DNA of 64,000 nt from Bigelowiella natans CCMP2755 (lineage: Eukaryota; Protista; Cercozoa): the NCBI GenBank assembly GCA_000320545.1, contig ADNK01003372.1:1-64000 (forward strand), given 5' to 3'. This document shows positions 10,606-62,701 of this stretch, one piece after another (positions within the stretch are counted from its first letter, which is position 1; each line of letters begins with the position of its first letter). The translations under genes and the position numbers were made by a program. A model generated the notes under the pieces. The model did not search any database. It saw nothing but the letters and a program-made list of their open reading frames with translations, and was not told where the DNA came from.

Positions 10606-13173
10606 CCCCATGATATTAATCACAGCTACAACTGAAGGGAGAAAGAACATGTGATCGAAGAATAGAAAAGAAAATCTAAGAAAACGGACCTTTCCAACAG
10701 AAAGTATAAGCTTATATTTAGTATATTCGCCATTGGGTAGCTGGTAAGGACTAGAAGGGGTAGTTCAATCCATTATTTGAAAACATGAAGAAACAATAAG
10801 AAACCCTTTATTTAAATCAGATGACTACCGTTGATTCAATAGGTGTAAAATTTGAAATGGAACGCACGCATAATCATACATGTGGCATTATAAATCGTCA
10901 TTTTTGTTACTTCTGAGACTTGGTGATCCCGCTAATCTGGGCCATTCTATATCTAGAATAAAAATATGAATTAGAGATAGATTTAATTTTATGAGAGGAA
11001 TCATCGGTGTAGCAATCAATTCTAAAAAGATGAACCAGTCTAGGCAGCACTAACTAATAAACCAAACCAAAGTTATAATGACTAATATTTATATGTAACC
11101 TCCCCCCTTCAATAACATTGGTGCTGCATGATAACGGGGTACTACATGAATGACTGGTGATCATCCGTTCTTTATAAAGTCAAATCATCCGTTCTTTTTA
11201 AAGTCAAACTTACATTGGCCTCCCTTCCTTGTTACCAACCAACACGCGCACAAACATACCTTGGATGTAGTCTAAAAAGGAATTTGTGCATCAGTATGGA
11301 CGATGAGCTTAAAAAAAGGCAAAAGGAGGGGAATGAAGTGATGATGACACCGAACAAACTGCTGGCAACTTAATCGCTTTCCCTTTCTTGCTTGCATGAG
11401 AAAATGATTAAATGTTTACATATTGTGCTTTACTGCATAACAAACAGTTGTCTTTCATGTTGCAATAGTTTGGAGCTCATAAGCATGAAAGATAACCATC
11501 ACCACCACCCCCACCACAACCCAGCCGTGTAATCTCTAGTGACATCATCATCATCACAACCATCACCTTTCATATAGGGTTTTTTGATCAGTTTTTCCAA
11601 CTCATTACGACGAATCTAAATCCAGCATACTATATTGAAGACCAAGTATCTTCAAATAAATAAATAACACATTGTGTCTACCGTGCAAGCTTTTACAGTT
11701 TTAAGATTTAATGGAGTCTCTGAGAACCATTTCTGCAAATTGAAAGAAAGATATTTGTCAGGGCTTCTAGAAGTATACTACGGCAATCTTTCAGTAACAA
11801 CCGTAGCCAACGACGAGAGAAAGTCTTTCCATAACACCTCTACCATACGATGGAAGAAAATACCTTCCTTTCCGAAACTACTTGTTCTTCTTCGATCTCA
11901 TCACCATACTCTTGATAATCATCCTCTTCTTCAACCTGTTAATGCAATTGTTGCTTCAAATATATGATGATGATGACATGGGTCTGCCGCCCCTTCTCTT
12001 AACATTTCTATTCTCATAATGCCAAATTATAATTATTTTCTCTCCTCTCTATGACTGCGAATAACTCCACCTACCTCTTCATCATGCTCTTCCTCCTCCT
12101 CCCTCTCGTCGGGCAATTCTTCATGGTCTTGTTCTGATGTATCACATTGTTGGCGTGCCATTGTGAAACCGACGAGAAGTATTACTTTTTACTAGGTTAC
12201 CTTCATAAGCCTCATCGATTTTCTTTTTTTTTTTAAGCTCATTCCTGAATAATAAGCAATGTGTTATCCCCACAGAATTTTAATTTTTGATTCAGCCGAA
12301 ATTATGATTTGAAATTATGTTTTGACAATCCTTACCTCTTTTTAATTTGCTCCAAAGCATATGCTTCCCTTTCCTGTTGTTGGGTCAAATGATCTCGTCG
12401 GGGCCTCTGCTTCCTAGCCTTTGATTGTCTTCTCTAAAGAAGAAGGGAAAGTGAAGTGGAAACCAGATTGGGATTAGCAATGCGTAGTAGTATCTATCTA
12501 TCTAATGATGCTGTCAGTAATATAGTGAAACAATCATTCTGATACATCATGTGACAACACGCAATTCACATGTGGTTGCCAACATACTCGAGCAGCTGCT
12601 TCTTTGCGCTCCTGTCTTCGCTTACGCTCCTCACGACGTTCATAAATTAACTCTAAGAAGTTTTGGCATCCAATATTTTTCAAATGAAGAGCAATGTGAG
12701 AAGTATTTTGTTAATCTAGAATATATTACCTTCCCTCCGAGCTTCCGGAAGTCTTAAGAGTTTCTCCCTTTCTTCACCCTAAGCAGTGTTTGTAGCAGTG
12801 TTTGTACTACTACCTCAGAGAAATCAAATTGTTACGCAACAAATAATCGTCGAGTGCATATTCCACATTTCATATTACCTTCCCCATGAAGTCTGCCCCC
12901 CATCCATCGCTCTCACTCATCTCAGATTCACTGAAAAAATAATGTCGATTGGTAAGATCAGAGAAAAATGTCCAGAATAGAATGAGCCATTCCTCCATCC
13001 TCCAAATAATGCGTATGATTTTACCTTTCTTCCTTTTTATCCTCTGAATCATCAGAAGTGTCGTCCTCGGACTCTCGACTCTTCCCCAAAAGATCACTGA
13101 CAACAAAGAGCATTGTCAAACAATTCTGTGAGGCACAACATAACGGCCACTATTTACTCGATCTCGTCGCCAT
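7393..13173 (-). CDS. RTF1: RNA polymerase II-associated PAF1-complex subunit RTF1 (Plus3 domain), multi-exon
   Basis: Exons give ELIYERREERKRRQERKE (HMD-like) and a Plus3 domain IRRNELEKLIKNPYMK/DYIQGMFVRVLVGNKEGRP/YRMAQISGITK/PYQLPNGEYTKYKLILSVGK/AKMEYRITQMSTKSITSNEMDFWIK, followed by coiled coil and C-terminal LMTLEQYSGR...*. Confidence 0.85.
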
Positions 13174-13429
13174 CTTTATTCCTGCTCGACGATACCGGTA
13201 CATCCTAAAAAGAATCGTCAAATGAGTGATATTTGAAAAGTGAGTGTAGGTTTTGATCATTACATCTTCGGAACTAGACATCGATCCTGTTCGTTATGCC
13301 AAATCAAGAGGTAGTTGACAGCAGTAAGGTCTTGACTAAAAGAGGGTGGTGTCCTCCTGTCCAGCTTCCCCGCACTTGTTGTCTACCAGAGCCGTACAAG
13401 GGACAAACCCTTTTTTTTTGGGATGAGAA

Positions 13430-13532
13430 TGTGCGAACTACTACTAGATCTACTCCCTGGAGATTCTCCGAGATTTGGATAACAATGTGCGAACTACTAC
13501 TTGATCTACTCCCTGGAGATTCTCCGAGATTT
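13430..13532. repeat. Tandem duplication, about 56-bp period, 2 copies
   Basis: tgtgcgaactactact[a/t]gatctactccctggagattctccgagattt occurs twice. Confidence 0.9.
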
Positions 13533-13596
13533 TTAAGTTGCTCACTGACGGATGGACCCATCATTGGAACAGTTGATTCCTTTTGGTTTCACTAGA

Positions 13597-14230
13597 TGGT
13601 CCTCACTAAAGTTAGTTCGAGGCACTGCGTTTCGTACACTGCAAATGTCTTGTTACATTTTGGAAATGTAGTTCTTTGTCATTGTTCATTGTTCTGCTTC
13701 ATTGTTCATTGTTCTTCTAGGAAAAAGTGGTCATGCTTGTTTGAGCTTCTTGAACATCGGCTAGAATTTGCAATCTGCCTCCCTCTTCCTCGATTTGTCC
13801 TCTTTGCAATGCTGAAGTGGCTCAAAGTGTCAACCACCTCATCCATCATTGTGCTCACTTGAATGCTGCGAGAAACAAACCACTCTCGAGCACAAGAATG
13901 GCTCTGGGCCCAGCTTCTCCTGTCTGCTCCTCACCCTTTGATGCTTCTGACTCAGCCAAAACTGAAGTTGTTCTGGGTGCCCCCTCGGATGATCCGAACG
14001 TGGATCATCGTGCAGATGCAGCCTTTGGGGAGTTTTCACTTGGAGCAGATGCTTTGCGTCGCCGCCACATTGCTGCTAGTTGCATTGTTCCACAATGGCT
14101 GAATCACCAATTCAAAAGTGCTCTGCTGGTTTGGCAGTTGGTCCTCACTGAAGCTAGTTCGAGGCACTGCGTTTCGCAAACTGCAAACGTCTTGCAACAC
14201 TTTGGAAATGTGGTTCACCATCATTGTTCT
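13597..14230 (+). repeat. Diverged direct repeat of about 90 bp (13597-13688 vs 14139-14230)
   Basis: tggtcctcact(a/g)aag(t/c)tagttcgaggcactgcgtttcg...tcattgttc, with 13 differences. Confidence 0.9.
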
Positions 14231-14990
14231 TGGACAATGCAGTGCAAAGAACAAGCTTCATTGCGTGTGTCGCACGGAGGTGCTGTGCGAGCAGTGCCTG
14301 CACACTGACAACTGACTTGGTTTCCCAAGTCTGGAAATGTGCTTGCGCGTGGCAGTGATCGCTGCCAAGGCTTGCAATCTGGCAAGTGTGCTGTTGCTCA
14401 ATGACAACAAAGTCCATGACTTGGTGTGACACGCGCGCGCTTTGCTGCTTGTGTCAGCCACGTGCTGCTAGCAGAACACCCAGACATGCAGAAAAGACGA
14501 TCGAGCTCATCATTGTGGCATGACAGTGCCGCTTCCGATGTTTTGCAAGCATCAACAACATCAATCGTCGCATTGTTGCTGCCTCCAAGCCTTCGCGGAC
14601 TCAAGAGCTTGTCATTTCATCAAAGCTTTGTTCGTTTGACGCTTCACAGCATCGCATCCATGGCAACATCAAACAGCCAGCGCCATTGCTTGTCACATTG
14701 CTGCCACACACACACTCTGCTCTGGAGAACCACATGGCGCCGCTAGCTTGTCCTCGCAGCGTCAATGTGACTCCAGAACCACACGCTAGCAGCCCACGAT
14801 GCATGCATTTTTTTTCAAGGCCGTCGAAGTGTAGAGAAGCAACGTTTGAGGCAGAGCCAACCGCACGCAGCAATCTTCCAAGATGTGTAACTCGCTCCTT
14901 TCTCATGTCACTTGCATTTAGTTGCTCGCCACATCTTGGTCGTGATTCACAAATGTGTGGCACTGCCGCATGACAAAAACAACATGCACA
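13671..14990. mobile_element. TpA-depleted degenerate element (probable mobile or foreign relic), island A
   Basis: From 13671 to 14830 all 7 TA dinucleotides seen are in CTAG. Many overlapping Tyr-free, Cys/His-rich pseudo-ORFs. No recognisable host gene. Confidence 0.55.
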
Positions 14991-15022
14991 AAATGATCAA
15001 ATGTGCACGGCTTGAAATCGGA

Positions 15023-16444
15023 TTATGAATTGTTAACTTTACTGTTTGCTTTGGACCAACTTTCAGGAAACGGTCTCATGTTGGTGTTGCCAACCATTAT
15101 GTCAATTGTTTTTCTTGTTCTCTCGAAGACATTCTCTTTTATGTATGGCACATTGTGCTTCTTACATATCTCTTCCACTTCCTTCTGACTCTTTTGATAT
15201 GAGAGCATTGACAGGTTTGGCCACAAGTGGTGCTCAACCTGGTAGTTGAGCCATCCATGTAGAAAATCTACCCTATCGTTCCCAAGATTGAAATTTGCGC
15301 TGGACAGAATTTGTCTGAGATAAAACTCGCCACTATTTGGGGGCGTGGAAGACGAAAATTTATACATGTCTTTTCCTGTATGATTAGGTACAATGGTGAT
15401 AAACGCGTGTACATTTGATAGAAGATCTGCCAAAAACAGGTTGATGACACCATGTAGGTAAATTGGAGCTCCGAAGATCGCGAGAGGGGCCGGTAAGAGT
15501 AAAAACCGGATCAGGAAGTAAGGACCGATAACATTTTGAATCACCTCCTTCCCACTTACAAAGCTGGGGTATGGGTCTTTCAAAGCCGTTGAAAGCATGA
15601 AGGGCTTGTTCGCCAAATCCTCTGGTATTTCTTTGCCCTGTTTTCTTAACTCGTGGAGTTTAAGTTCCTTATACGTGTTCGGTGCGTAATACGTCCACTT
15701 CCAACCCAAAACTGCCCCAAAAACATAGAGGTACTTGAAGGCTTTTGGCCAATTGTTCTGTCGAATATGCTCAAGGTTTCGCTCCACTAGGTCGGGATCG
15801 GTTTTCTCTCCGAGGTTGTAATGGTGAAGGTTATTGTGTTCAAGATTCCATGCTTCTGGCAACATCCAATCAAACCAATCAAAGACACGGCGCTGCAAAC
15901 TACCAATTGCGAATTTCCCTCTGTTGAATCTTCCTGAATCGTCTAATTTTGTGTAGCCACCGTGGCATGTGTGATGCGCGATCATTGTCCACCTGGAATA
16001 TGTCCAGAGGCTCAGCATCAGAATCGAGAAAGGGTTTGGTGCTAGTCCCATCGTCGCTAGACCAGCAATTCCGCATGCGTTGCTCCATCCAATAATCTTG
16101 TTTAAATGTTGCATATCCTCTGGCCCCTGTTGTTCCTCGAGTTTCTTCCCAAGAGAGCGAATGTCTTTTCTGAAAGCCTCAACGTCAAAATTATTAAGCC
16201 AGGCCTCATCACCGACATAGCGTTGTGGTGTTTCTTTTCTCGTATCAACTTCGTCTCTGACTTCACGCTGCGTGGTAGTGGGTGGTGGAGAGTATACTAC
16301 TCTTGGCTTCGTATTTAATGAACGCTTTCCGAAGAAATTTCGAGATCTAAGAGGACGCACGTTAGCCAACGGCGAAGTCTTCGACAAGGCGCCGCAGGAG
16401 ACTAGAGATACCAATGACATGAGTATCAGAGAAGTAGCGCTCAT
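15023..16444 (-). CDS. Membrane fatty acid desaturase (FA_desaturase family, no cytochrome b5 domain), with a predicted bipartite plastid-targeting leader; intronless
   Basis: Uninterrupted ORF with His boxes HHTCH, HNNLHH and QVEHH. The N-terminus MSATSLILMSLVSLVSCGA is signal-peptide-like and is followed by an S/R/K-rich transit-like stretch. ATG at 16444. Confidence 0.9.
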   Translation of the reverse strand: MSATSLILMSLVSLVSCGALSKTSPLANVRPLRSRNFFGKRSLNTKPRVVYSPPPTTTQREVRDEVDTRKETPQRYVGDEAWLNNFDVEAFRKDIRSLGKKLEEQQGPEDMQHLNKIIGWSNACGIAGLATMGLAPNPFSILMLSLWTYSRWTMIAHHTCHGGYTKLDDSGRFNRGKFAIGSLQRRVFDWFDWMLPEAWNLEHNNLHHYNLGEKTDPDLVERNLEHIRQNNWPKAFKYLYVFGAVLGWKWTYYAPNTYKELKLHELRKQGKEIPEDLANKPFMLSTALKDPYPSFVSGKEVIQNVIGPYFLIRFLLLPAPLAIFGAPIYLHGVINLFLADLLSNVHAFITIVPNHTGKDMYKFSSSTPPNSGEFYLRQILSSANFNLGNDRVDFLHGWLNYQVEHHLWPNLSMLSYQKSQKEVEEICKKHNVPYIKENVFERTRKTIDIMVGNTNMRPFPESWSKANSKVNNS

Positions 16445-16962
16445 CTTGATTGGCGGTTGAGAGTCACTCTGAAGTATCACGAAGCAGCAATAGTAAAAGC
16501 ATGGTCTTATAGGTGTTGCATGTAAGCTGGAACAGTAATTAGACGAGGTCCTTTGTTTGTTACAATGACTGGAAAGGAATGTAACATTGGGTGTTGAGTT
16601 AATGACCTTATGTTCGTTACTTGCTTCGTTGATGTGAGCCCGATGATAGTTTTCTACTTTTGGCCGTGATTAAGTTCAGATCCGGATTGCTCGCGTTCAG
16701 ACGACGAGGACGGCAACTTTCTTCTCGTGCAATTTGCACCAGAAGATAAAAGAGTGTCCGTAGTTGGCCATAGCCAGGTGACGTATCCCCCAAAATACAG
16801 GGGGTTTTAATTGCTGCGCCATAGTCTTATTTCCGGGGTACGATGTCGCTTGCTGAGACGCTGATGAAATTACTTCATCTCAGTTTGGAAAAATCGGAAA
16901 TAGTTAAGTCGCATCCTTGGCTTCCCAACTCTAGGAACCCAACCACTCCTCGTTGTAAAAGC

Positions 16963-17512
16963 TATTCTGTTCGCGTCCTTGACTTCACAGCTATGTTTTT
17001 TCACCGAATTTTCGCAGTGGATGTAGTCTCATAACGGTCATTGCGAAAGTCAAAAAATCTTGAACAAATATCATGAATTTCCATGGATTTCTTGGCTCAT
17101 AGAACTAACATTTTTTTTTTTTTTTTGAAGGTGTCATCCTCGACTGCCCATATTGGTGAAGAAATATTAGGGCCTCAACCTGATGCGTGGAGAGATATCC
17201 TACACAGGTTCAAGACAACTTCATAACAACAACAATAACATGACAACAACAACAACAACAACAATGACCTCTGCTATCCAAAATTGTTCCACTGTTAGTA
17301 GATCTAGTAAAAAAATTATGATATTTCATCGAAAATCTACTTGGTAACTAAGAATAACTAAAACTAGAATAACTAAAAATTTTGCTATGTTCTGCCATAC
17401 AATTTTTGACTTTCGCAATGTCCGTTATGAGACAACATCCACTATGAAAATCACTTCGGTGTAACAACATAGCTGGGAAGTCAAGGGCGCGAACAGAATA
17501 ACTAACTAACTA
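16963..17512. repeat. Inverted pair of a ~100-125 bp dispersed repeat (16963-17058 on +, 17376-17500 on -), MITE/TIR-like
   Basis: tattctgttcgcg(t/c)ccttgacttc(a/c)cagctatg...ttgcgaaagtcaaaaa is present on opposite strands. The right copy abuts (TAAC)n. Confidence 0.8.
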
Positions 17513-21140: not shown

Positions 21141-23128
21141 GTACTAAATAGATAAATCGATTTATCGATTAATATCTATTGTGAAGAAATTAGGAGTTGT
21201 TTGGATGGTGTGCTAGATTGCTGCTACTCATACTATCCCGTCGATGACGCACCAATTGCGATTTAGTGTTAGCGATAAAACGAAGATGAGAGATCCAACA
21301 TTCAGATTGGAGTTGAGAGCCGGTGGGAATAAATCTCAAGAACTTCTAATAATATTTTTGGGCTAAAAGAAAAGCGCGTTTGTATTGTTGACGCGGTGCA
21401 TCATGCAATGTTTCTAACAACACAATGAATGCCGTCATTAGATGTGCGCATCATCAAAATAACTTCGTTTTTTTAATTCCTATCAACGCCACGTTGCAGT
21501 GTATACGACGCGCACACGCTAGACAACGCGCAGTATGCTGTGTCAAATTATCTTGTTGTGGACTATAGTGAACATATAAACACAATGCGGCCGTTTCATG
21601 CGAATCGGACTAGCGGATGCATCGTTTGAGGCGCTGCCACATGTCGCATCATTGTTACGCAATACAATCTGTAGCAATGCTAGAATGCCTGCGTTGCACA
21701 TACACCAGTCTAGCAGTGTGCATACACAGGCCGATCAATAAGTTGCATTAATCTATTCAAACAATTGGAGAATGTAGCATAGCAGCAGCGTGCGATGCGA
21801 ATGACAAAAACTAACCTAGGCTGCACTAGTAATGTGATGTAGCTACACATGGATGCGTGCAGCACGATGTACGTACAAGATGTGATGTGAATGCTATGCA
21901 TGCTAAACGTACTTTATGCATACATCGTACGCATATCTATAGTCTAGTAGATACGATACGTACTGTGTAGGCATTTATTTGTGAGGACAATCGCACGTGT
22001 CGTACAAAGCATGTACATATGTGACACACGTCACGTGTGTACACAGTTCGTGAATGCGTGCAGAGTTACCAGATTGACTTGCAGATGTAGTCGACCTAGC
22101 TAGCCGACAACAAGCAATGATGATTGTGACATGATGCTAGCGCCGCTAGCTACGATGCTTGGATGCGCCGCCAGCATGCAAGACATGCATCACGTACAGT
22201 TCACCCCCGCCATGCGCCACGCATGCAATGCACTAGTCTGTAGTGCGTTCGCGTATGACATGATGCATATACATGTGTGACTGCTCTATAAGCGAATCAT
22301 CTTCGTGCCCACACTGATTATATTTGCAGCATTTGATATGCTAGTTACATGTGTAAGCTGGAATGCAAAGGCTTGGTCCGCATGTTACTGATGACGACAT
22401 CGATCTAGCGATCTAAGAATCTACTACTGAACTCGTGTGTCAATCCAACTCATATACTTATCTTCCCCTGCGCGTAATGCAAAGGAAATAATATCCTATG
22501 CACTTCATTGTATTTCCTCCATTGATTGATGAAAAATTCTAGTGTGCTGTACATTTGTCGTTGTTTGCCTGTAGTCAAGATTTTTGATCGAGTCTGACAG
22601 GTCTATGGTTAAAGATAGCAAAGTTTTTCCTATAGCTGAGAGAATCAAAGGTTTTCTTAGCGGAGTATGGAGCGGCTTTGTTGGTCATAAAATTTCCCGC
22701 TCTTGTAACAACGGCAATAATGCAAAGACTCATCCCAAGAAGGCACTCCAAGATAATCTGAGTGAATAATGGATTATCAGCGAGTTCAAGAAGAAATCTA
22801 CGAGATAAATTACATCTAGGGGGGGAGATTCTCTGCTTTCGGTCGCCATTGCAAATTCTTTGACTGAAAAACACAGCAGAAGGGATATTTAGTTTACCCA
22901 CTCCTCGATTTTTTCGAAGGCTTCAAAGCCTCCTTATGCGTACAATAAATTCCATATGGAATCCGAACCTCAGCCTTATGAAATAAAAGAAATGTTTCAT
23001 GAACATACAGTGCTGCATGGAAACGAGGGAGTGGATCATGAGAACAGCGCCAATGCCAGCCTGGAAGGTATCCATTGAAGGCATGATCCTGTTGCGTAGA
23101 AGGTGCGTCGTTGCCTGGTCGGCTGTGG

Positions 23129-24380: not shown

Positions 24381-24414
<34 letters not shown>

Positions 24415-24662
24415 GACGTCATAGGACGATCCAAGTTGGCAAAAGGATAAGAAGAAAGTCGAGGCTAAAGTACCAATGGGGCGTATCGCGGACCCTTGGG
24501 AGATGGCTGGTCCCATTCTCTTCCTCTCTAGCGACGAATCGTCATTCATGACTGGTTCTATTACACTCCATCATTTTTTTGAGTGTGGTATAATAACCGA
24601 TCATGATGTTGATGTTATCAGGATCTGTCGTCACAGCTGATGGGGGATATTTGCTACGCTAG
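23536..24662 (+). CDS. Short-chain dehydrogenase/reductase (classical SDR) with an N-terminal signal-like peptide, 3 exons
   Basis: Motifs TGGDSGIG, NNAG, YTTSK (YxxxK), APGPVDT, then PMGRIADPWE and VTADGG. Introns at about 24274-24424 and 24555-24621. Confidence 0.9.
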
Positions 24663-26163
24663 TAAGACGTGAAGCTGTGCTTCTTCAACAAGGATAATGC
24701 TAACATTGGCATTCATAGTATTTTTCTAGAGAGTTTTTTTAGTGTAGTTGCTTCGAAGAAGTCAATCACTAATCGATTTTCATTCGTGTGACATGTTTGT
24801 TGCCAAATTGTGCTACAATATTGCAAATCATGTTACGTAGTATCCGATAGAAACGGGATACCACGGTTTCGCTGCTGTGTTGATTGAATTTCATGCGACG
24901 ATATTACATTCAATCCGACCCGTCGTTCGCTGTTAAAGCCCAATCTAGCAATGCATGTGTCAAGCTAAGTTGAACGCAATATTATGCCGACGACTGAGTA
25001 GCTCAACTAGACAAAGTACGCGGTCTCTTCTCACAGCGATCGCCAATGACGTTTGATTGTACTGATCTATGGTAGAGAAAGAGACATCTGGTGTAAACCC
25101 CAAACGCACATACATGCATGTTGTGTATCGTAGCTACGCTAGCAGTACGTACGCATTGAGACGCTATGGCCACACAGTGACAGAACACGTATATGATTCA
25201 ATTCGCTCATTGGCTTGGCATGTGTTTTGCAAATATGAATTGTTGTTGATGTCATAGTATGTGTAATATAACAAAGGCGAGTGTACACATGTCGCCCCGC
25301 TTAACCGTGCTTACATCTGCTATAGATACCTAGACATGTCTGATCGTCAGCAGTGGCACTAGCTCGCCATTGCACTTTTTTGCGCGTATCGAGCGCTAGA
25401 GCGCATTGCATGCACCCATATAATACGTCATCTAGACGTGCAAACAAAGCTGCACACCCTTCACTTTTGCATGATCTTGCTTTATTGCATTGGCTGGTGT
25501 ATCGATTAAAGAAAAGCACAACTCTTACACTCAAATCAACAGAAGTAGAAATTGTGACACTGACCGATGTGGGATATATAACAAATAAAAAACTTTTGTA
25601 TAGAACATGACAATATATTGCTAAACCATCTCCATCTCATCTTATGAAACTTACGTGTCGCTGGATGGTGGTACGGCAGATTGGACACTTAGCGGTGACC
25701 ATTTTAAGTAAACATTCCCTGCACGTGCACATGTGTCTGCAAGGAAGAAGTATTGTATCTCTAGGTTCTGAAAGACAGACTAAACATTCACCCCCTTCAT
25801 CTTCACCAAAGATTTCCTAATCAAGTATAAAATATACCACATAAGGCGTAGTAAAAATAATATCATGTGGTATGAAAAATGGAATATGATAAAGGCAGCA
25901 GCATGGCTGTGACTTGTTGTTTTAATACCCGAATGTGTACTGGTTGCTTCCCTGTCGCAATTGCACATTGCATGTCTGTTTGAATCCCAACCAGCTTCGA
26001 TATTACTCGCTCATTTTCACTTGATTTCATACTGAATCTAATGATAGTGATTTCGTCTCCAACGTTCGCTTTGTATTGTAAATACAAAATCAGCTTCACA
26101 CTTCAAGAACGTCACTAGTATTTTTTAGCTGAATACCATTAATTTAACATCATGTAATATATT

Positions 26164-41755: not shown

Positions 41756-42369
41756 TGCATGAAATGGAAAGCTGGTACAGTGAATGATTCCGTTGTACTT
41801 CTTCCATTTCTGAGTAGAATTCATTAGATGTGAAATTTGTAAATCCATGAAGGTTAGTTTCAAATTGACGCATCTTCGTCATTTAGTGCATGGCAATGAA
41901 TGCCATGTTGTTTGGCACAGTCAACTTGCGCTTCTGTTTCACAGTGAGTTCTTCTCACGATGATGGCGTCATCATATCTGAGCTCATTGCTGCAGCGCAC
42001 AAGGTAGCAAGGCCAAGATTGGGTGCATGCACTTGGCCCGCAAGTTCGATCATTGTTTGCTTCTTTTTTGGAGAAGCATTGTGAATGACTGATGCGCAAC
42101 ATTGTTTGTGCTGTCATTCGCGCCACAACATGCATGATGTGCGCGAGTGCATCGAAGTTGACTCCACATCGATCCCCACATGAAAATGCACACGAACGGA
42201 TTGATCAGACGATGCGACAATCGGTGCATGCTCACAACTCATGCTGTCAGGCTGATCTTGCCAGCCACTTGTGATGGCTGTGCACTGGCCGTGGCAAACC
42301 TTCTGTTTGTTTCAATGCGATCTCAGCTGCTGCGTGGCTGGCTTGCACACTGCCAGACTTTGGGACTGC

Positions 42370-43900
42370 TAGACGACTAGCTGAGGCACTGCTGCAATGT
42401 GACCTGGTTGGTGATGGTGAACGCGCACACAGAACAAACAAAGCACACCTGCCAGGTTCGTGTCCAACAGTGACCCTTGCATGTCCAGGTCCACAACCAC
42501 ATGTCGACGCATGTCAATGTGTCCTGGCGCTAGCGCCACACCAGCAACGCAGCAGCGCTGCGCAGCGCATGAAAATCGATCGCAGCGCTGATGTGATCGC
42601 AATGCAATCATTTTGAAACACATCATCAATCACATTTCTCCATGTTGGCCATGTTTGGGTCACAAAGCTAGCTGTGGAAGCCCAGAAATCAGCATGAGCG
42701 TGCACACACACACACACACACACGCACACACACAAACACACACACGTGCAGCTAGCAGATGCACCTGGACAATGGAAAGGATGAGAAGTCCCGTGCTCCG
42801 CAAAATTCCAGCGTCTCACCATCTGAAAGGTGAAAAGAAGTTCACTGACGAAGTGAGCAAACACACACCTGCATCAGCAATGCCATCAGGCCACACGTTC
42901 GCTTCGAGCTGAAACTCGAGCTCATTTGTGACAGACACAGCAACACAAAAAGCAGCAGGAACCTTGCCTCTGATGGTTTTGTCAATGAAACTTCGCTTCT
43001 GACTGACACTTGGTGCCACCACCACAGGCTGGGACGATCTGACTCGATGCTCATTGATGCATGCAAGCTGCTGGTTCGAAGAAGATTTTTCCTTGCTCTT
43101 CCGATTTCTGATTGAATGCATCACAGATTGAGCAGTGAACGTTGCTTTGATTGGTTTCAACAATCAACTCACCTTTTGGAAGCTTTCTCAGCTTTCTTGG
43201 CGTTGAGCTCCTGACACTTTGGCCTTTGTTCAGCATTCAATTTGGTGGAGCAAGGCACAAGATTTCCAGGAAAGCGGAATGTCATTCTGCTCTTCGATGC
43301 AACCCTTTCCGTCCCTCGAATGTCAATCTGTCGAAGTGTTTGACTCTTCCACATCACCTTCACGTTTTTTTCATCAGCGTGAGACTTTTGAATGTGAATG
43401 CAACTGCAATCTCTCCTCTTCAAAGGATCCAATCCACACATCCTGCGAATCACTCAACTTCCCTCGTTGGGCTCAATGCCGAGTGCTTCTGCCAGCTTGT
43501 TCGATGTGTCTCGTTGCCTCTCACCACCTGTGGTTGCCAACAGGACGTCTTCTGTGTCATTGCTCTCCACTTTCGCGCATCCTTTCCAAAGTTGGAGAAA
43601 GTGTTCCTTCGACATGGGAAGACTGAAAGAAGCTGTGGCTCTTTTCCTGAGGGTGCATCTTTTCAATGCCTGCTGTGCTCCAAATGCCACATTGCAAATT
43701 GTGGCCCCCAGTCCGTGTCCATCGCATTTGCAGCTTTGTTTCTCCTCGAAAAGCGTCTTGCACACTTTGCGTGAAATCCTGCGTGTGAGATGACGACAAT
43801 TCTCTCTCCTTTGGAGTTTTTTTTCGCATCTTCGAATTGACAGTGGGGCATTTTTCAATTCCAATTCTTCCCTTTGCTCTGCTGCCAGGCGAAGCGCCCT
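42370..43900 (-). pseudogene. Decayed unidentified ORF of the relic, divergent from the transposase
   Basis: K/R/E-rich reading frames 43454-44014, 43169-43453 and 42816-43163 joined by TGA stops or frameshifts. Intron-like (TG)n tract at about 42700-42765. Confidence 0.45.
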
Positions 43901-44049
43901 TGGGAAACCTCGGCTCCGTGCAATCCGAGCTCGAGCCCCATCCCCCCCCCATTCTTCCTCGCATCCTGTGCGTTGGGTCCACACCCACCCACCGCTGTGC
44001 CAAACACCTTTCATTCAAAAATTCGCTCAGGTGAAATCACATTGAAAAA

Positions 44050-44453
44050 GAGTTGATGACGGATCAGCAGGCCCCATTTTTGCAGATGACGACTTTCCAT
44101 GAAAAATCCAGCGCGTTCAATTTCAACTCTTTTTTCATGCGGACTTCGGCATTCGCTTGCTCTGCGCCTGCTGATTGTCCATCTTTGTGGGACAACACAG
44201 GCTTTGAAAATTGAAAGAGCCAAGACAAATTGAATTTTCATGAAAGTGTGGCGGGAACTCTCGTTTCATGTGATGCAGCAATGCTTGCACAAGTCCCCCA
44301 AAACTTCACACTGCGCAGGCGCAGGTGACAGCAGGAGAAGCGAATGTCGAAGTCCGCGTGAAAAAAAATTGAAAATTCGTGGTGCTGGCACATTGCAAAG
44401 TTGCTGTTGCTCAGGATCAGAGGGAATGGGGGCTGCTGATCCGTCATCAACTC
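44050..44453. repeat. Imperfect inverted repeat (arms about 44050-44158 and 44338-44453)
   Basis: gagttgatgacggatcagcaggccccatt matches the reverse complement at 44425-44453 at 28/29 positions. ttttttcatgcggacttcggcattcgctt pairs with aagcgaatgtcgaagtccgcgtgaaaaaa. Confidence 0.85.
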
Positions 44454-44759
44454 AAAAGTGTCCGAATTGACACTTGTCAACCTTTTTTTTCATTCAAAAG
44501 TTCGGAGGCGCCTGCAATGGGGCGAAGGCCTCTCATGGCCGTGGAAGAGGCGATGAATCTGGTGAAATTGCTTTCCCTGCCTCGAGCAGGAGAACACAAG
44601 GTTCGATGAAAATGCAGTGTTCGATTTGATCTCTCTTGCGAGAGAAAAAGAGAATTGTGTTTTGATCACTTTGTGAGTTTTCGGTGTTGGTTTGTTGTGT
44701 TCATGACAGCCACTTGTGCATTCTGAGCAGACGTTCCCCTGGCTTCGGACGGGATTTCG

Positions 44760-47540
44760 ATGTTGCGAAGGATCACGTCCTTCGAATGCAAGGGACACCA
44801 TGGCGAAAACCCACGAGAAGACCCTTTGCTTGGTGCCAGGTGCAACTGTGATGGGAATTGTGCTTCCGGAAAAAAATCAAAGAAGATGTCAGCCGAACTT
44901 CGTGCTTCGAGCGCTCGGGTTTCGGGGTGGAAAGAGAAAGCCACCGAGGCACTGTCGCAGGTTGATGAGGTGAAAAAAAATTCCAACGAAGCTGACATTG
45001 AATTGAAGCTGAGCAAAAAGAGAGAAGCTCGGCCAAAGAGGCAGCTAGAAAAATCGAAAAAAGAGCTTGCACGCGCCCAAAAAGAGCAAAAGGAGGCTGT
45101 GATGCAGCGCACCGATGCCATTGCTTCAGCCACTGCATCCAGAGCCAAAGCGAGGAAGCTCACAGAAAAAGTTGAGGCTCTCATCTCAGAAAAGAAACAG
45201 AAGTGCTGAAGCTCGCCATGTCAAGAGATGGAGATCGCCAACAAAAAGTGATGGGTGCTGCCAGCTTCAAGCTCAAGACTCAGAAGTCCAAGTCGGAAAA
45301 GCTCCTGTCATCCCTCAACAGCAAAGCCACTCAGCTCTCCATCCAACTCCAGGCATCGAAGTCTGCTGCGAAAAAGAATTCAGAAGAGTTGTCGAAGCTC
45401 AAACGCAAGCATCAAGTGGTGTCAGATCGTTCCAAAAACAGAGGGAGAGCTTTGAAGAAAATTCGAGCCAAGCTCTCTTCAATGAAGCAAGAAGTGAGGA
45501 GTTCGTGTTTGATCATGGGTCCAAAACGCAAGCTGAAGGATGATTCCAAAATCAAAACGCACCGCTTTGATTGCGCGCCGCAAAGCAGCAGAAGCTGAAA
45601 TTTCTCGCTTGACATCTCGGGTGGCAGAAAAATGGTGCATGCAGCTCTCTGGATGTGGAGCATTGGAATTCGCTGCTGAAGAAGAGTGCTCCGTGAAGGT
45701 GGCTTTTCGAAAAGGCACCAAAGCAGCTGATGTGGTTGGCAAGTTTTTGCATTCAGTTGGTGGTGGACCATCGAAAAAAAAACTTCACGAAGTTCGAATG
45801 CTCTCGCATGCTGTTCCATCCACGTGCTCGGTCAAGAAAGTGCAAGACAAAATGGATTTGGCCATGTGACAGACACAGCAACAATGGAGTCCATGTTTGA
45901 TCCATCTTTTGATGCTCATCACTTCGCAGTGCATCCAGAGAAGTGTTTCAAGCACACTTTTGAGCATCGAGGGCTCGAAAATCACACGACGCATGACGCA
46001 CTGCTCGAAGGTGATGGGCGTGGAACAGGGAATTCTTTCAAGTCTGTCACATTTCAATTTGGAATTCTCAATGAGGGCCGCCCAATGCACAGGGAGGACA
46101 GACAGTGCGTGTTGGCGCTGCTTGTTGGGGATGGAAATGGACCGATGCTTCAAAAACATCCAACTCCGTTGTTCACCAAACTCAAGGACTTGCAAGAGTG
46201 TGGCTTCACGTGGAAAGGGTGCCAAAGGAAAGTGGGGCTGCACCACACTGGAGACGCAAAATGGATGAAAATCATCCACGGCATGGTTGGTTTCCACTTG
46301 AAAAACCACAATGACTGCTTGCACTGTCACTGTCATGCTGAGGACAGAGCGGACACGACTGTGAAGTGGGCCACAGAAAAGCAGCGCTTCTCGGGACCTC
46401 TGAAAGAGTGCGGAAGGCAGCACAAAGATCTTCTTCCATTGTGTGCCAATGGAGCGTCGCTGGAGTGAAAACATGCACCTCGTGTTTCGGTTTCTTCGTG
46501 ATGAGATCACAGCTCGTGTGTTCACTGACATCACAAACACAGAGTTGGGCACCCCTCAGGAGGGCATGAAACAGACAGAAAACGACTTGCAAGCAGCTCC
46601 ATTTGACATGACCAAGTTTGAGTTCAGGGCGTGTGAGGTGAAAGACAGATCAGCAGTGGGAGGATTCACTTGGGCCACTCCGAAAATGGCGAAGATGCTG
46701 CAGATTTCAGAGGAATGGGACTTCGAACATCTGTGCAAAGTCAATCCTGGGAGAGGCGAGCCATTGCAAAAATCGGCAAGAAGCTGGGTCAAAATGCATC
46801 GCAGACTGATGGTTTGGCCAGGAGACGGGCCAGAACTGACTTGTGAAGAAACATGGAAGGAGCATTCGGATTTCATGGAGGCGCTCATGGAAGAAGGGTG
46901 ACAACAACGAACAACATGCATGCACATGTGCAGTGTGAGTGTGCGTGTGTGTGCAATTCATGACAATCATCACGTTGAAAATTTTCATTTGTGTGTGCTT
47001 GTCAGAAATGGAGAACCAGGCATGGATGACGTGGAGATGAAGGGTCTTCCTGGCACGATTGTGACTCCTTGTTGTGCTCACACTTGGGTCAATCACATGG
47101 GGGAGCAACACGGAAGAAGTGCTGCTCATTCCAACCACTTTTCAGAGAATCCTGGACCAATTGAATCAAACATGGATTCTGATGACTCATCTGATGAGGT
47201 TCAGGAGCTGACAGCTTGCTCAGGCGGGCTGAAATTTGCTCGGACAGACGCACTTGAACGGAAAATTTTGGCGTTTTTTCACAGTTGTTTTCAGACACTT
47301 GGCAGGCGAAATGATCATGTCATGCCAGACGCCGGGTTCCAAGAGCTCAGGAAACTCATCAATCCACACAAAAGTGGCAGCTCCAGTGGACACAAACATT
47401 GGTGCGAGTGGTGCGGCAAAGGACACGTTGGAAAAAAATTTTGCGCAGCGCATCAGCTCGAATGTGCCCAAGCACCGTGGACAGCATTGCAATTGTCATG
47501 CATGATGCACTTCAATCACATTTTGGCAACGTTTGTGTGA
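44760..47540 (+). pseudogene. RAG1/Transib/Chapaev-like DDE transposase pseudogene (N-terminal coiled coil, catalytic core, C-terminal zinc finger)
   Basis: Core motifs LLEGDGR...FGILN...LALLVGD...GDAKWMKIIHG...CLHC...ENMHLVFR...VTPCCAHTWVNH match the pattern D-G / D-x-K-x6-G...CxxC / (D/E)xxH / TPYxH. An in-frame intron lies at 46898-47005. C-terminal CEWC-x12-H-x3-C finger. Several frameshifts and TGA stops. Confidence 0.7.
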
Positions 47541-48778
47541 CATCTGATGGCTTCAATGTCAATTGCAGTGATTTTTCCATGCATGTCCCATGCGCTTGCT
47601 GCTGGTGCAGGCTCATTTTGACATGCGTCGACACATGAATGGAAAACGAACAAAACTTGTTCACAAGATTTTGTGGCACGTGCCACCGACCCGCTTCAAG
47701 CAAATTGCGATCGATTTTTCGAAAGCTTGCCGCCTGCGCAACGCTGCAGATGAGGCCTTGCCTCACACGCACACTCGTCTAGTCGTGGTTGCCGCGCCAG
47801 TGCAGAGCAAAAGTTCGTCACGTTCCTGACAGCTTTCCTGAACTTTGATGACCAGTTCACTTTTGAGCACTTTCCATCTGCACTCACACCAGACTTGTCA
47901 AAACCAGAAAAACGAACAAAAACCACGCGAAAAAGGTGCGGCAAGAGCTTGCAAAGTCTGCAAAAAAAAACAAAATCCGAGCAAAATTGCAGCCAAGCAG
48001 GTGTCAAGACAAAACTTGGTGTCACCACAACAACAGACACCCTGACCCTGGCAGGTGTGAAGTGGCAAAAAATGGCTGACGCACGCACTTCTTCCCCGCG
48101 TAAGTGACGAGACCACGGGACAACCGCACGAAAAGAAGGGTCGATCACAAGTGAATTGCAAGCTGAATGAGTGATTGGATGAGTGAAGAAGAAGGCGAAG
48201 TGCACGTGCGAGTGAAGTTGAAGTGCCCACGGGGCCCCAAGCCAGAAAGGTGGTTTGCAAGACAGAGCAAACAAAGTTTCCAAGCGGCGATGTGTCTGAT
48301 CGAAAGGATCAGGAGTGCCGTGCCAACTCATCCACTCCCTTCCCCATTGACAAGGCAGCCAATGCAGGGAAAGTGAAGGCTGAGAGAACGACCGTGAGCT
48401 GGCGGTGCGCGTGCGTGCAGCCCGCCAGCCCGGAAGTCAACTTGCCAGCAGTTTGGCGTTGATCGATCGAACGTGCGATGTGTTGTCCATGACTAGATGA
48501 TTCCGAGATGACGATTGAAGCTTGTTTCTCATCACTCTTTCCCCCCATCATCATCGTCGCCATCGTTTTCGTGAACAGCAGCCAGCTTGCAGCAAGCACG
48601 TGGGTGTTCTTCGAGTTGTCGCAGTGGAAGAATGGCAGCAGGTTTCCTTCAATGGACGTTGTCGCAAGTGGTTTTTCGCTTCTATTTCAAAGTTTCTCGC
48701 ATCGCTTCTTACGTTGTGAATACCAACGCTTATTAGTAGATCTCTCAGTTTGCCCCCCTCCTCCTCAAACGAACGAAG

Positions 48779-52595: not shown

Positions 52596-53471
52596 TCGTA
52601 CTTATATTACAACTACTTTGATAAGATTGTATACAACCAAACTACCCGAACGGCTCTTGTGCGAGTTCAATGAGTAGTATGTGAGATCGAAAAACGGAGA
52701 TGATTGCATAGAGTAGAATCTGGCGTTATTGACATACGAATGATGATGTAGCAACAGATATAACCAAAAAGTGTGCATCGATTTGCGCATTATTCGTTTT
52801 TTAATCAATGGCTAGATGGTGTTCAAAGTGATGCAATTTCGTCTGAAATGGACTTTGAGACAAATGGTTGAATTTTCATACTCAGCCACCTTGTTACTTG
52901 CGACAAGCCAAATTTTGATGCATGTACGCACGTCGAGCAAATGCGCGAGCTCTGCGGTAGAGCAGCCCATCAAATGAAATCGTGTGAAAATTCACATGTG
53001 CTCATTTTTCAAATGGCGATTTTTGTTGGGCACAAGACGTCTAGACGTGCAGAGGCGAGGCATGTGTCATGCACGTGATGCGCGCGCGCGCGCGATGTTG
53101 TTGCTGCGCATGCACTAGTGCAGTTGAACAGTTGAAAACATCCGCCTCGGTAGGCACTAGCGCAGATGAATTTGGGGAAAAAAATTGTGCCAAAATTCCA
53201 TCTGGAACCCGCAATCCCGCCATGCGCGCGGTTTGAACAAGCTGCTGTGTGTGTACGTGCGATGAGCACGCCGCGTGCAACGTATAAACGCAGAAAGTGC
53301 AATGTCAGCAGGCTAGCAGGCTAGCAGGTGCATGTGCGTCACGATGCATGCGAACAATTTGCATCGAAATAGAGGCTTTTGGTACGTTGACTTCCCATTC
53401 GTTCAAACTTTGCACATGACTATTAACTAATAATCACTTAATTTTGAGCGACAACATTCGATGGTATGGCA

Positions 53472-60692: not shown

Positions 60693-60999
60693 ATGAAGAA
60701 GAATGCACTAAACAACAGCTACAGTGTGTGAAAATATCTCTATCTAGCTAGCTGCTTCAGCATTCATAAAGAATTTCTGCCGGTTGTTATCTGCAAACCT
60801 TATGCGATTATCATATGCAGATAACGACCGAAAAAAACAATAGTACTACATCTCTGACCGAAGATTATAATCATGATGCAAAAAACTACGATGGGAGGGC
60901 CACTGAATTACTACATCATGCCCGCATCGTTGCGTCGCCATGTAACAATGGTGTAAATTTACACGAATGATCAAATGTGCAACAGATGATAGACTGACA

Positions 61000-62150
61000 T
61001 GCATGATCTTCCGGGCGTTCACGTTGAGTCGCTCATGTGCAGCGCCAGTCAGCACGCACTCGCAAAATCTTCGCGAATGATGCTAGAATGCAAGAAACTT
61101 CCACTGCTGGCTGTATGATTCCAGAATTTCCTGGCACAGTTCCTTTGATGGGTTCCGCCGAGACCCAATTCACCAATGCGTATGCGCACACACAGCATGC
61201 TATGCATGAAAAATCCCAAACAAGTGTGTCAAGTGCTGGCAATTTGCATGAAGAACACTCAAATTAGCTCTGAGCTTCACTGCTCTAACACTGCTGTGGA
61301 CCACCACAGCAATCACAGACTCAACTAGTCAAGTAGTAAATGTCTGCAATGCGTGTGTCCACAGACTCATTGATGTCTTTGACAACGCACTTCACTAGAT
61401 CATGCAAGCCACGCTAGCACGCGCTACGCACACGATTCTGGGACCATCGATTGGCCACGTTGCAAAGACGTTCGTGCCTCCTAGCAAACCTCATCAATCA
61501 ACCAAAAGATGATGATGCAGCACACGCACAGCACACAGCATACTAGCATGCATGCGCGTGCATGTGCGAAATGGCGTGCACTGGTGCACTTTGGCACTCT
61601 AGCACTCTCTAGCTCTGCACGTCCTGCATGGAAGAATGCAGGCTAGCAGGTAGCAGGCTAGCAGGTGAGACGCCTGCTGCCAGCAGCCCAGTCAGCTAGT
61701 TGACTAGCTGTGCGCTGATGCACGCACGCGCCGATCGAATCGAACGCAGGCGGTGGCAAACACAACTCTCAAGGGAGCAGAGTGTTTCCATGCAGGCATG
61801 ATCATCATGCAATCAACAAAGCTAGAAAGGCCGCCACCATGCCAACTTGATCACGTTTCCACAGATCTAGAGATCTAGATGCACGCGGCTGCGCTGCGCT
61901 GAGAAGTTGAAGTCGCCTACAGCGGCCCATGGCTGCGTCTGACGCACATTTTCATCACAATGTGCAACATGCATGCGAAAGAAGATGACAGATTCGAGAA
62001 CTTTCAAGACCAACGATCGATCTCATGCACGCCTCACTTGATCATGCTTGCTGCCAACCAGCGGTGCGTTTTCATCATTTCCTTGTGCTGTCAATTTTGT
62101 CCATTTCTTCTCAATGACAAGCATGAATGGCAGCATTGGGTCTAGAGGTG
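61000..62150. other. Partially TpA-depleted, CTAG-enriched intergenic island
   Basis: More than a dozen CTAG sites, few other TA, and abundant TGCA/CATG/CACA. Shares the motif gcaggctagcagg with 53308-53330. Confidence 0.65.
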
Positions 62151-62157
62151 GGGCTCA

Positions 62158-62701
62158 TTAGATGTCATTAAACTTCATGAGCACCCCGGCAGAACCTAAT
62201 TGGTGATGATAGAACACAATTGCAAATCACCATGAGCATTGAACAACAACGATTTGGAAACGATCACTATGAATAGGATGTGATTTGATGTTAGTCTTGC
62301 ATCACGAACAACCACCACCTAATATGAAGCCCCTTTTGTCGTCATAAAACTTAATCTTGTAAAAGTTGGCAGGTTGGTTATCGCCGCTAGAATCTGCAAA
62401 TGAGGATGATGAATGTCAGATTGTGTCAATAAGTGTTGCTAATGTTCAAAGGAGGAGTCGATCGTTAATAACAAAGCAGTAGCAGTAGTAGCAGTAGTAG
62501 TAGTAGTAGCATCGAAGGAAGCAGCAGCAGCGCATCCATCAACAGTTTTAACAACAGCACCAGTGCTAAAAACTACCTGCCGTCCACGTCTTCCCGTTAT
62601 TACGGGATAAGAAGATCTTTCCTACAGAGATGTAGATCGGTATATGTCGATTTTGTAGAAGAAGAGGAATGAATGAAATGAATGCAAGAAATTCACAAGG
62701 A

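Follow-up and report, generated by a model that had tools for sequence, protein, structure and literature searches.

Repeat-induced point mutation (RIP) of fungi introduces near-saturating, dinucleotide-specific transitions into repeats and destroys their coding capacity, making TpA from CpA. Stringent LINE/SINE pairs, in turn, consist of a LINE and a non-autonomous partner with a common 3' end. In Bigelowiella natans, de novo TpA>CpA/TpG hypermutation has been described by Mettrop et al. in two integrated viral regions, with 231 de novo mutations, all AT>GC changes in hypermutable regions at TpA, and a rate near 1e-7 per site per generation; in its main text, this preprint further reports that coding sequences depleted in TpA are enriched in RT, endonuclease-RT, and DDE domains, lists 124 depleted clusters, and proposes an ADAT2-like deaminase (10.64898/2026.01.13.699255).

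Here, we analyzed a 64,000-nucleotide stretch of B. natans CCMP2755 (contig ADNK01003372.1; hereafter, the window), in which two islands (A and B) are almost devoid of TA and a third (C) is partly stripped (Table 1). A repeated unit of about 90 bp at the left edge of island A had been read by the initial annotation as a local duplication, whose inner copy would have lost TpA in place and depending on position. Our data point to another reading, which we hold to be clearly the most probable: two non-LTR retroelements would have inserted separately, the copies being the 3' tail that they have in common. One of them, a LINE carrying copy 2, would have been stripped by TpA>CpA/TpG hypermutation, in part within its ancestors and in part once inserted, and copy 1 would be younger and less hit.

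Table 1. Features of the window at and around the TA-poor islands.
Feature	Position	Strand	Basis
Spliced host transcript, left-hand boundary of island A, reaching to ~135 bp from copy 1	12500..13438	-	Three CT..AC introns; probable RNA contig 13263-13438
Copy 1, 3' end (5'-truncated) of a SINE-like, apparently non-coding retroelement whose tail is of the (CATTGTT)n type	13573..13714	+	Matches to L001 and L003
5'-truncated LINE relic, left half of island A	13715..14229 (5' end approximate)	+	ORF matches, P0024 alignment
LINE ORF2 C-terminus with C-x2-C...H...C motif, 0 Tyr	13760..14098	+	Protein alignment
Copy 2, natural 3' end of the LINE	14139..14229	+	Copy alignment
Right half of island A, 0 non-CTAG TA (34 expected), 3 CTAG	14230..14831	.	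Depth, counts
Flank toward the desaturase 3' end, partly TA-poor	14832..15022	.	3 TA in 191 bp
Host fatty acid desaturase gene, right-hand boundary of island A	15026..16444	-	PF00487; clusters with Bigna1 model; RNA contig, intron 16469-16606
Island B, 1 non-CTAG TA and 8 CTAG in 6,676 bp	42007..48682	.	TA counts
Broken, Tyr-free putative DDE transposase in island B	~44535-47498	+	Alignment of relatives
Island C, partly stripped, 16 CTAG and 11 other TA	60991..62158	.	Counts

Two retroelement tails at the edge of island A

Between copy 1 (13597-13688) and copy 2 (14139-14230), which match well beyond chance (BLAST E 4e-21), 14 of the 92 columns differ, or 13 without the last column, which lies outside the repeat. 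Thus the 13 differences of the initial annotation were exact, and so was their split into nine T>C or A>G changes toward copy 2 (13608, 13612, 13635, 13646, 13653, 13658, 13670, 13676, and 13677), one G>A (13678), and three transversions (13637, 13654, and 13675), as well as the count of five TA in copy 1 and a single one, within CTAG, in copy 2.

The duplication itself did not hold. A local segmental duplication should comprise two copies only, with shared flanks, and the unit departs from this in both depth and upstream sequence, being a very high-copy repeat, even though the window contains two copies only. Summed DNA contig depth on the unit was 15,147 against 15.5 for single-copy DNA in run X11, and 47,681 against 49.6 in run X4 (run X18, with 2 contigs only, was left out of the depth analysis), i.e., about 1,000 times single-copy depth; summed contig depth being different from copy number, just the order of magnitude (~1,000 copies) is taken from it. 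In X4, 479 contigs lay on 109 bp of the unit. Five public metagenome copies (L001-L005) have the same tail and differing 5' ends, and pattern scans of viral contigs and genome contigs returned 0 matches. Moreover, 91 RNA reads on the unit fell on the + strand against 8 on the - strand, under a convention that puts - strand genes on -, and reads running from the tail into an A-run were found in each of two counts (11 and 12 reads, respectively), any copy being a possible source.

Copy 2 is the 3' end of a LINE, whereas copy 1 terminates another element, a partner with a common tail. The LINE ORF had eight matches at 60-72% identity, seven of them Bigna1 models and two with RVT_1; PF00078 scored above cut-off in the paralogs P0024 and P0026, the window itself having only the ORF2 C-terminus, whose cysteine-histidine motif we take to be zinc-knuckle-like. 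Furthermore, P0024 aligns unbroken over 13760-14227, and the relic combines 5' truncation with a simple-repeat/poly(A) 3' tail, as expected of a LINE. At 14096-14098 a TGG occupies the place of the stop codon of the relatives, and is probably a former TAG, judging from the alignment. No loci related to the intact ENA relative (P0020) were found in viral contigs, and the searches recovered no TA-rich DNA of the LINE 3' end.

Regarding the partner element, the segment 13573-13714 matches L001 with 94.8% identity along 134 bp and, starting at 13573, L003 with 94.3%, with loose ends ahead of 13573 running on into the upstream sequence of L001/L003. In these two loci the element exceeds 1 kb and has internal repeats. 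Like a SINE, it has a 3' end common to a LINE; among fragments without the element's 5' end, ARAGORN predicted 0 tRNA genes in five loci and Rfam gave one chance-level match in three loci. In L003, phage-like lysozyme and 3TM holin genes (L003:34-1008 and L003:1361-1545) lie directly before the retroelement tail, an arrangement due to either insertion into phage-like DNA or chimeric assembly. A TnpB/Fanzor-like ORF (PF07282) adjoins the element in L004 (61-546), whose far end (2301-2460) has no TA except CTAG, and a methyltransferase-domain ORF lies downstream of the tail in L002 (331-1617).

By eye, the same two element types stand side by side in three of the seven Bigna1 models (P0019, P0024, and P0025). 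In the window, both elements meet at 13714/13715, where island A begins on its left side. A search for target-site duplications around both insertions yielded no match other than those to the tail motif. A true local tandem duplication of ~48 bp does lie immediately left of copy 1 (approximately 13427-13532), with both units TA-rich and differing at one CTAG site.

Island A holds no non-CTAG TA between 13669 and 14832; 66.7 would be expected from base composition over 13715-14831 (1,117 bp), of which 32.5 in the LINE relic. Its right half (602 bp) is single-copy at 80% likeness, with a depth of one contig in X11 and X4, and had no tblastn match to proteins P0001-P0051; it could be an old unrecognized element. 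TA-rich relatives of stretches without a match were also sought by BLAST with CA and TG collapsed to TA, which returned compositional noise at 57-70% identity. Compared with host rates of 0.055-0.078 TA per bp, the flank beyond the island is partly TA-poor (p 0.007-0.0002, Poisson), and the desaturase gene has an ordinary TA content (68 TA in 15026-16441). Bigna1 model P0041 and a host gene in the window agree at 100% over 414 aa, which identifies the window as B. natans nuclear DNA.

In island B, the stretch between 42005 and 48683 has one non-CTAG TA, where 422.6 would be expected. No class emerged for its putative transposase: P0003-P0005 had no Pfam match, there was no meaningful PDB match, and one of 30 relatives scanned, out of at least 150, had a RAG1 match below cut-off (E 0.002), a weak hint at most. 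The family has 279 relatives at E<=0.001 and no Pfam model, and 7 of the 127 relatives of at least 200 aa are Tyr-poor. Terminal inverted repeats were not found for the island; an inverted repeat of ~70% identity (44050-44453) lies just upstream of the transposase. Undusted self-BLAST of the window was swamped by microsatellites, and the window has many [AT]n repeats, at odds with a report that such repeats are largely absent from B. natans (PMC12730881), to which we give less weight than to the protein identity.

Direction and timing of the TpA losses

That TA is the ancestral state and CA/TG the derived one is supported by the public copies, by Tyr>His/Cys changes among paralogs, and by published mutation accumulation, although L001-L005 offer no outgroup to both families. 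All five belong to copy 1's family and were found with a pattern built on copy 1 that preset the state of 13637; they carry copy 1's base at 10 of the 13 sites (nine unanimous and 13635 in four of five) and copy 2's base at 13675 (four of five) and 13678 (all five), and are split at 13677. The fullest TA state is that of L003/L005, with 8 TA in 91 bp; against it, copy 1 keeps five of eight, and copy 2 lost seven, six via CA/TG, the remaining TA being the CTAG. Here the supposed reverse transition at 13678 dissolves, representing a TA>TG change in copy 1 and a CA in copy 2, from one ancestral TA. Just four of the nine transitions of the pair have a TpA context (13608, 13635, 13670, and 13677, the last counted from the TA present in L003/L005); the tTAc site lost its TA through a T>A transversion and the tTAg site kept it.

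The coding DNA of the LINE body gives the stronger evidence. P0020 has nine Tyr in this region and all seven Bigna1 paralogs have none. Of the 63 paralog cells at these sites, 26 are C, 25 H, 6 L, 4 R, 1 S, and 1 a gap; H and C both occur at six of the nine. The window LINE differs from P0020 at 31 residues, and among single-step transitions 15 are A/T>G/C and three the reverse, 10 of the 15 fitting a TA (p 0.0015). Likewise, L004 and L005, 97% alike, oppose TA to CA/TG in 7 of 22 differences (p 0.0008), and in island B the Tyr of intact relatives aligned to His/Cys in 10 of 17 and 17 of 25 cells, some off-frame stretches included. In the family depth, all five TA sites of copy 1 have both CA and TG alleles, and such a mixture at the same sites requires a TA ancestor.

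AT>GC changes off TpA amount to five of nine in the pair and five of 15 in the LINE body. They may reflect divergence between lineages, or ordinary substitution during a long period. The non-TpA transitions at 13612, 13653, 13676, and 13764 adjoin a TA (T before or A after), and three of the five non-TpA T>C changes of the pair affect a T directly preceding a TA, which could be bystander editing or survivor bias.

The proposal that TpA was lost in place is supported for the LINE as a whole, whose paralogs resolve the same TA differently, and is not carried by the pair. Copy 2's bases are common in the family depth (75% at 13608, 53% at 13612, 78% at 13635, and 54% at both 13653 and 13654; depth-weighted contig values among the rows listed, with related copies not independent), and were therefore perhaps inherited from a master element. 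By eye, the P0024 translation implies copy 2's bases at 13608, 13612, 13653, and 13654, and the 13653C/13654A pair, which includes a transversion, looks like a state of the LINE lineage. Among the TpA sites, 13670 (15%) would be the only good candidate for a change within copy 2 itself. In the LINE body, four of 10 TA-type changes are common to the closest paralog (P0019) and six are not; consequently, editing went on after their split. As for a dependence on position, the pair cannot separate it from age, since the island edge is the element junction; the better hint of a regional effect is the TA-free single-copy DNA to the right.

Under the two-insertion reading, the LINE would have been inserted by reverse transcription from its 3' tail, becoming 5'-truncated, and the silenced locus would then have been exposed to a mutator converting A:T to G:C at TpA, on either strand, until the targets were exhausted; silent chromatin would guide this mutator. 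The element of copy 1, borrowing the LINE 3' end, would have arrived beside the LINE later, hence an island edge that coincides with the insertion junction.

A rather less probable, although serious, alternative is that copy 1 is old enough to be stripped, but that the active gene lying ~135 bp to the left protects it, a regional mutator stopping near genes. Spreading would indeed give a LINE followed by 602 bp of TA-free single-copy DNA and 191 bp of TA-poor DNA, and copy 1 keeps TA where most of the family depth lost it (~12% left at 13607-8 and <5% at 13635-6). In addition, one H3K9me3/H3K27me3 state covers TEs and repressed genes in B. natans (10.1101/2025.03.17.643675), and among the many viral insertions the preprint saw hypermutation in two only (10.64898/2026.01.13.699255). 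However, over 91 bp copy 1 departs from L001 at just four positions, as a young insertion would; of the three TAs that it lost, one (13597) faces the gene; the island edge coincides with the element junction; and the single-copy stretch may itself be an unrecognized old element. Very improbable is the opposite polarity for the pair, with the LINE tail ancestral and the copy-1 family gaining TA by C>T/G>A decay after borrowing. LINEs do supply non-autonomous elements with their tails, and at several sites most of the family depth has the copy-2 base. The background spectrum is described as AT-biased, and decay of CpG can be seen (13629 G>A, 25%). Against this, CA and TG both occur at 13607-8 (13%/75%), 13635-6 (78%/18%), 13654-5 (19%/10%), and 13669-70 (20%/15%), and the LINE body lost Tyr codons and a stop relative to an intact relative; at the single non-TpA sites 13612, 13654, and 13658 the opposite polarity can still hold. 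Finally, the adjacency of copy 1 and the LINE might be an assembly join through the high-copy repeat, for among the contigs listed none spans 13603-13842 or 14003-14179. We regard this as the most far-fetched of the alternatives, because in both DNA runs exact contigs enter copy 1 on its left side, ending at 13602, and others leave copy 2 rightward from 14180, with an exact middle piece (13843-14002), and the two element types adjoin elsewhere. Unique X11/X4 contigs had 0 other letters over 12500-13602, 13843-14002, and 14180-17000, a coverage outside which the TA sites of copy 1 lie.

Survival of CTAG in the stripped islands

Of the 16 TA that remain in islands A and B, 15 stand within CTAG, against 95 of 4,005 outside; in island C the figure is 16 of 27. 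A G before or a C after the CTAG was found in 12 of the 15 survivors of islands A and B, compared with 29 of the 95 outside (p 0.0004). CTAG is not fully protected, since eight are present in island B against 15.6-26 expected; island A has seven against 2.6-4.3 expected. CTAG seems to act as a sink, in which new CTAG arises and persists. Indeed, TTAG/CTAG or CTAA/CTAG pairs occur at 13612 and twice between L001 and L004/L005, and codon 13763 encodes K in P0020, E in four and K in three paralogs, and R within CTAG in the window, states that would fit one ancestral CTAA resolved three ways. In mechanistic terms, CTAG would be a poor substrate and so survive, a chance CTAA>CTAG or TTAG>CTAG change taking the site out of reach.

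A one-sided rule (protection by a 5' C only or a 3' G only) was rejected, GTAG (15:20), the ATAG at 13597, and the former stop being misfits. At CTAA sites editing favors the CTAA strand (75:13 and 53:6), shares that are confounded by inheritance, and the 17 Tyr sites of island B are too few for a context rule. Elsewhere in the window, CTAG accounts for 15 of 92 TA in 21400-22600, 10 of 80 in 24400-25500, and six of 17 in 52800-53400, against ~2.4% in the remainder; TA is still present in these stretches, which might be repeats edited in part, or lineages in which the escape motif has accumulated.

In a literature search we found no earlier report of a CTAG rule; the word is absent from the preprint's main text, and its supplements may bear on the rule (10.64898/2026.01.13.699255). 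Simulations describe CTAG as structurally unusual and flank-sensitive (PMC6511876), a shape that would suit an enzyme reading DNA shape. Viral methylation motifs have been listed, and among those in the excerpt none equals CTAG (PMC13196603). Tentatively, and with more doubt than confidence, we put forward a mutator that reads more than two bases and erases every NTAN but CTAG, most spared with G/C flanks; CTAG would be an escape state accumulated by mobile lineages, and the process would have spread from the retrotransposon through adjoining single-copy DNA as far as the next gene's end. It would thus mirror RIP, with guidance by chromatin and a recognizable substrate rule.

It is improbable that CTAG is not spared and is instead continually remade from CCAG/CTGG by methylcytosine deamination. 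Family copies do often differ by C>T/G>A (34 and 24 places, X11), and RNA loose ends suggest a CCAG at 13612 in some copies. Yet a Dcm-like CCWGG source predicts CTAGG/CCTAG, seen in one of the 15 survivors, which mostly have the preceding G or following C mentioned above, and from a general CHG source DTAG should be remade as well, yet there is none. The chemistry is harder to separate, since TpA is its own reverse complement and an A target cannot be told from a T target in these data. Following the preprint's proposal, it would be adenine deamination in DNA, toward which we lean only slightly over thymine modification. Oxidized thymine causes T>C mutagenesis, and a route through 5-hydroxymethyl- or formyluracil at TpA in silenced repeats, followed by mispairing, is a possibility of lower probability. 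5hmU is stated to mark dinoflagellate TEs, and preferential T replacement in TA and TC is cited (PMC11572971); on the other hand, among the matches listed, literature on 5hmU/TET/JBP made no mention of Bigelowiella.

Comparison with LINE/SINE pairs, RIP and viral hypermutation

As in stringent LINE/SINE pairs, the two elements have a common 3' end of ~90 bp, a short tandem-repeat tail, variable 5' truncation, and polyadenylated RNA 3' ends. Unlike a SINE, the partner exceeds 1 kb with internal repeats and, in the fragments examined, all without the element's 5' end, has no tRNA or Rfam head, so that the term SINE is not established for it. For such high-copy tails a caution applies: look-alike copies lying near each other may belong to a huge family, and alone they neither date nor place mutations.

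The likeness to RIP lies in near-saturating, dinucleotide-specific transitions within repeats and the loss of coding capacity. The direction, however, is opposite, and the C:G to T:A excess of RIP was not found, with 15 A/T>G/C changes against three of the reverse. RIP is triggered by duplicates; here the LINE part of island A is repeated, yet 14230-14831 is free of non-CTAG TA while single-copy at 80%. The main target described in the preprint is single-copy too.

The closest system is thus the hypermutation of Mettrop et al., which has in common with this locus the species, TpA>CpA/TpG changes on both strands, and foreign or mobile DNA as target, as its main text presents them. Host genes are spared here as well, the LINE of island A and the putative transposase of island B being stripped and the desaturase keeping 68 TA. 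The process is therefore one already reported in B. natans, and our finding opens no new system. The differences, relative to the same text, are saturation in short TE relics, the survival of CTAG, and some T>C changes outside TpA. Where the preprint's main text inferred from composition only, the paralogs provide evidence that LINEs and DNA transposons, beyond integrated viruses, reach saturation, and the sparing of CTAG, as a sequence rule, adds a substrate fingerprint for the mutating enzyme.
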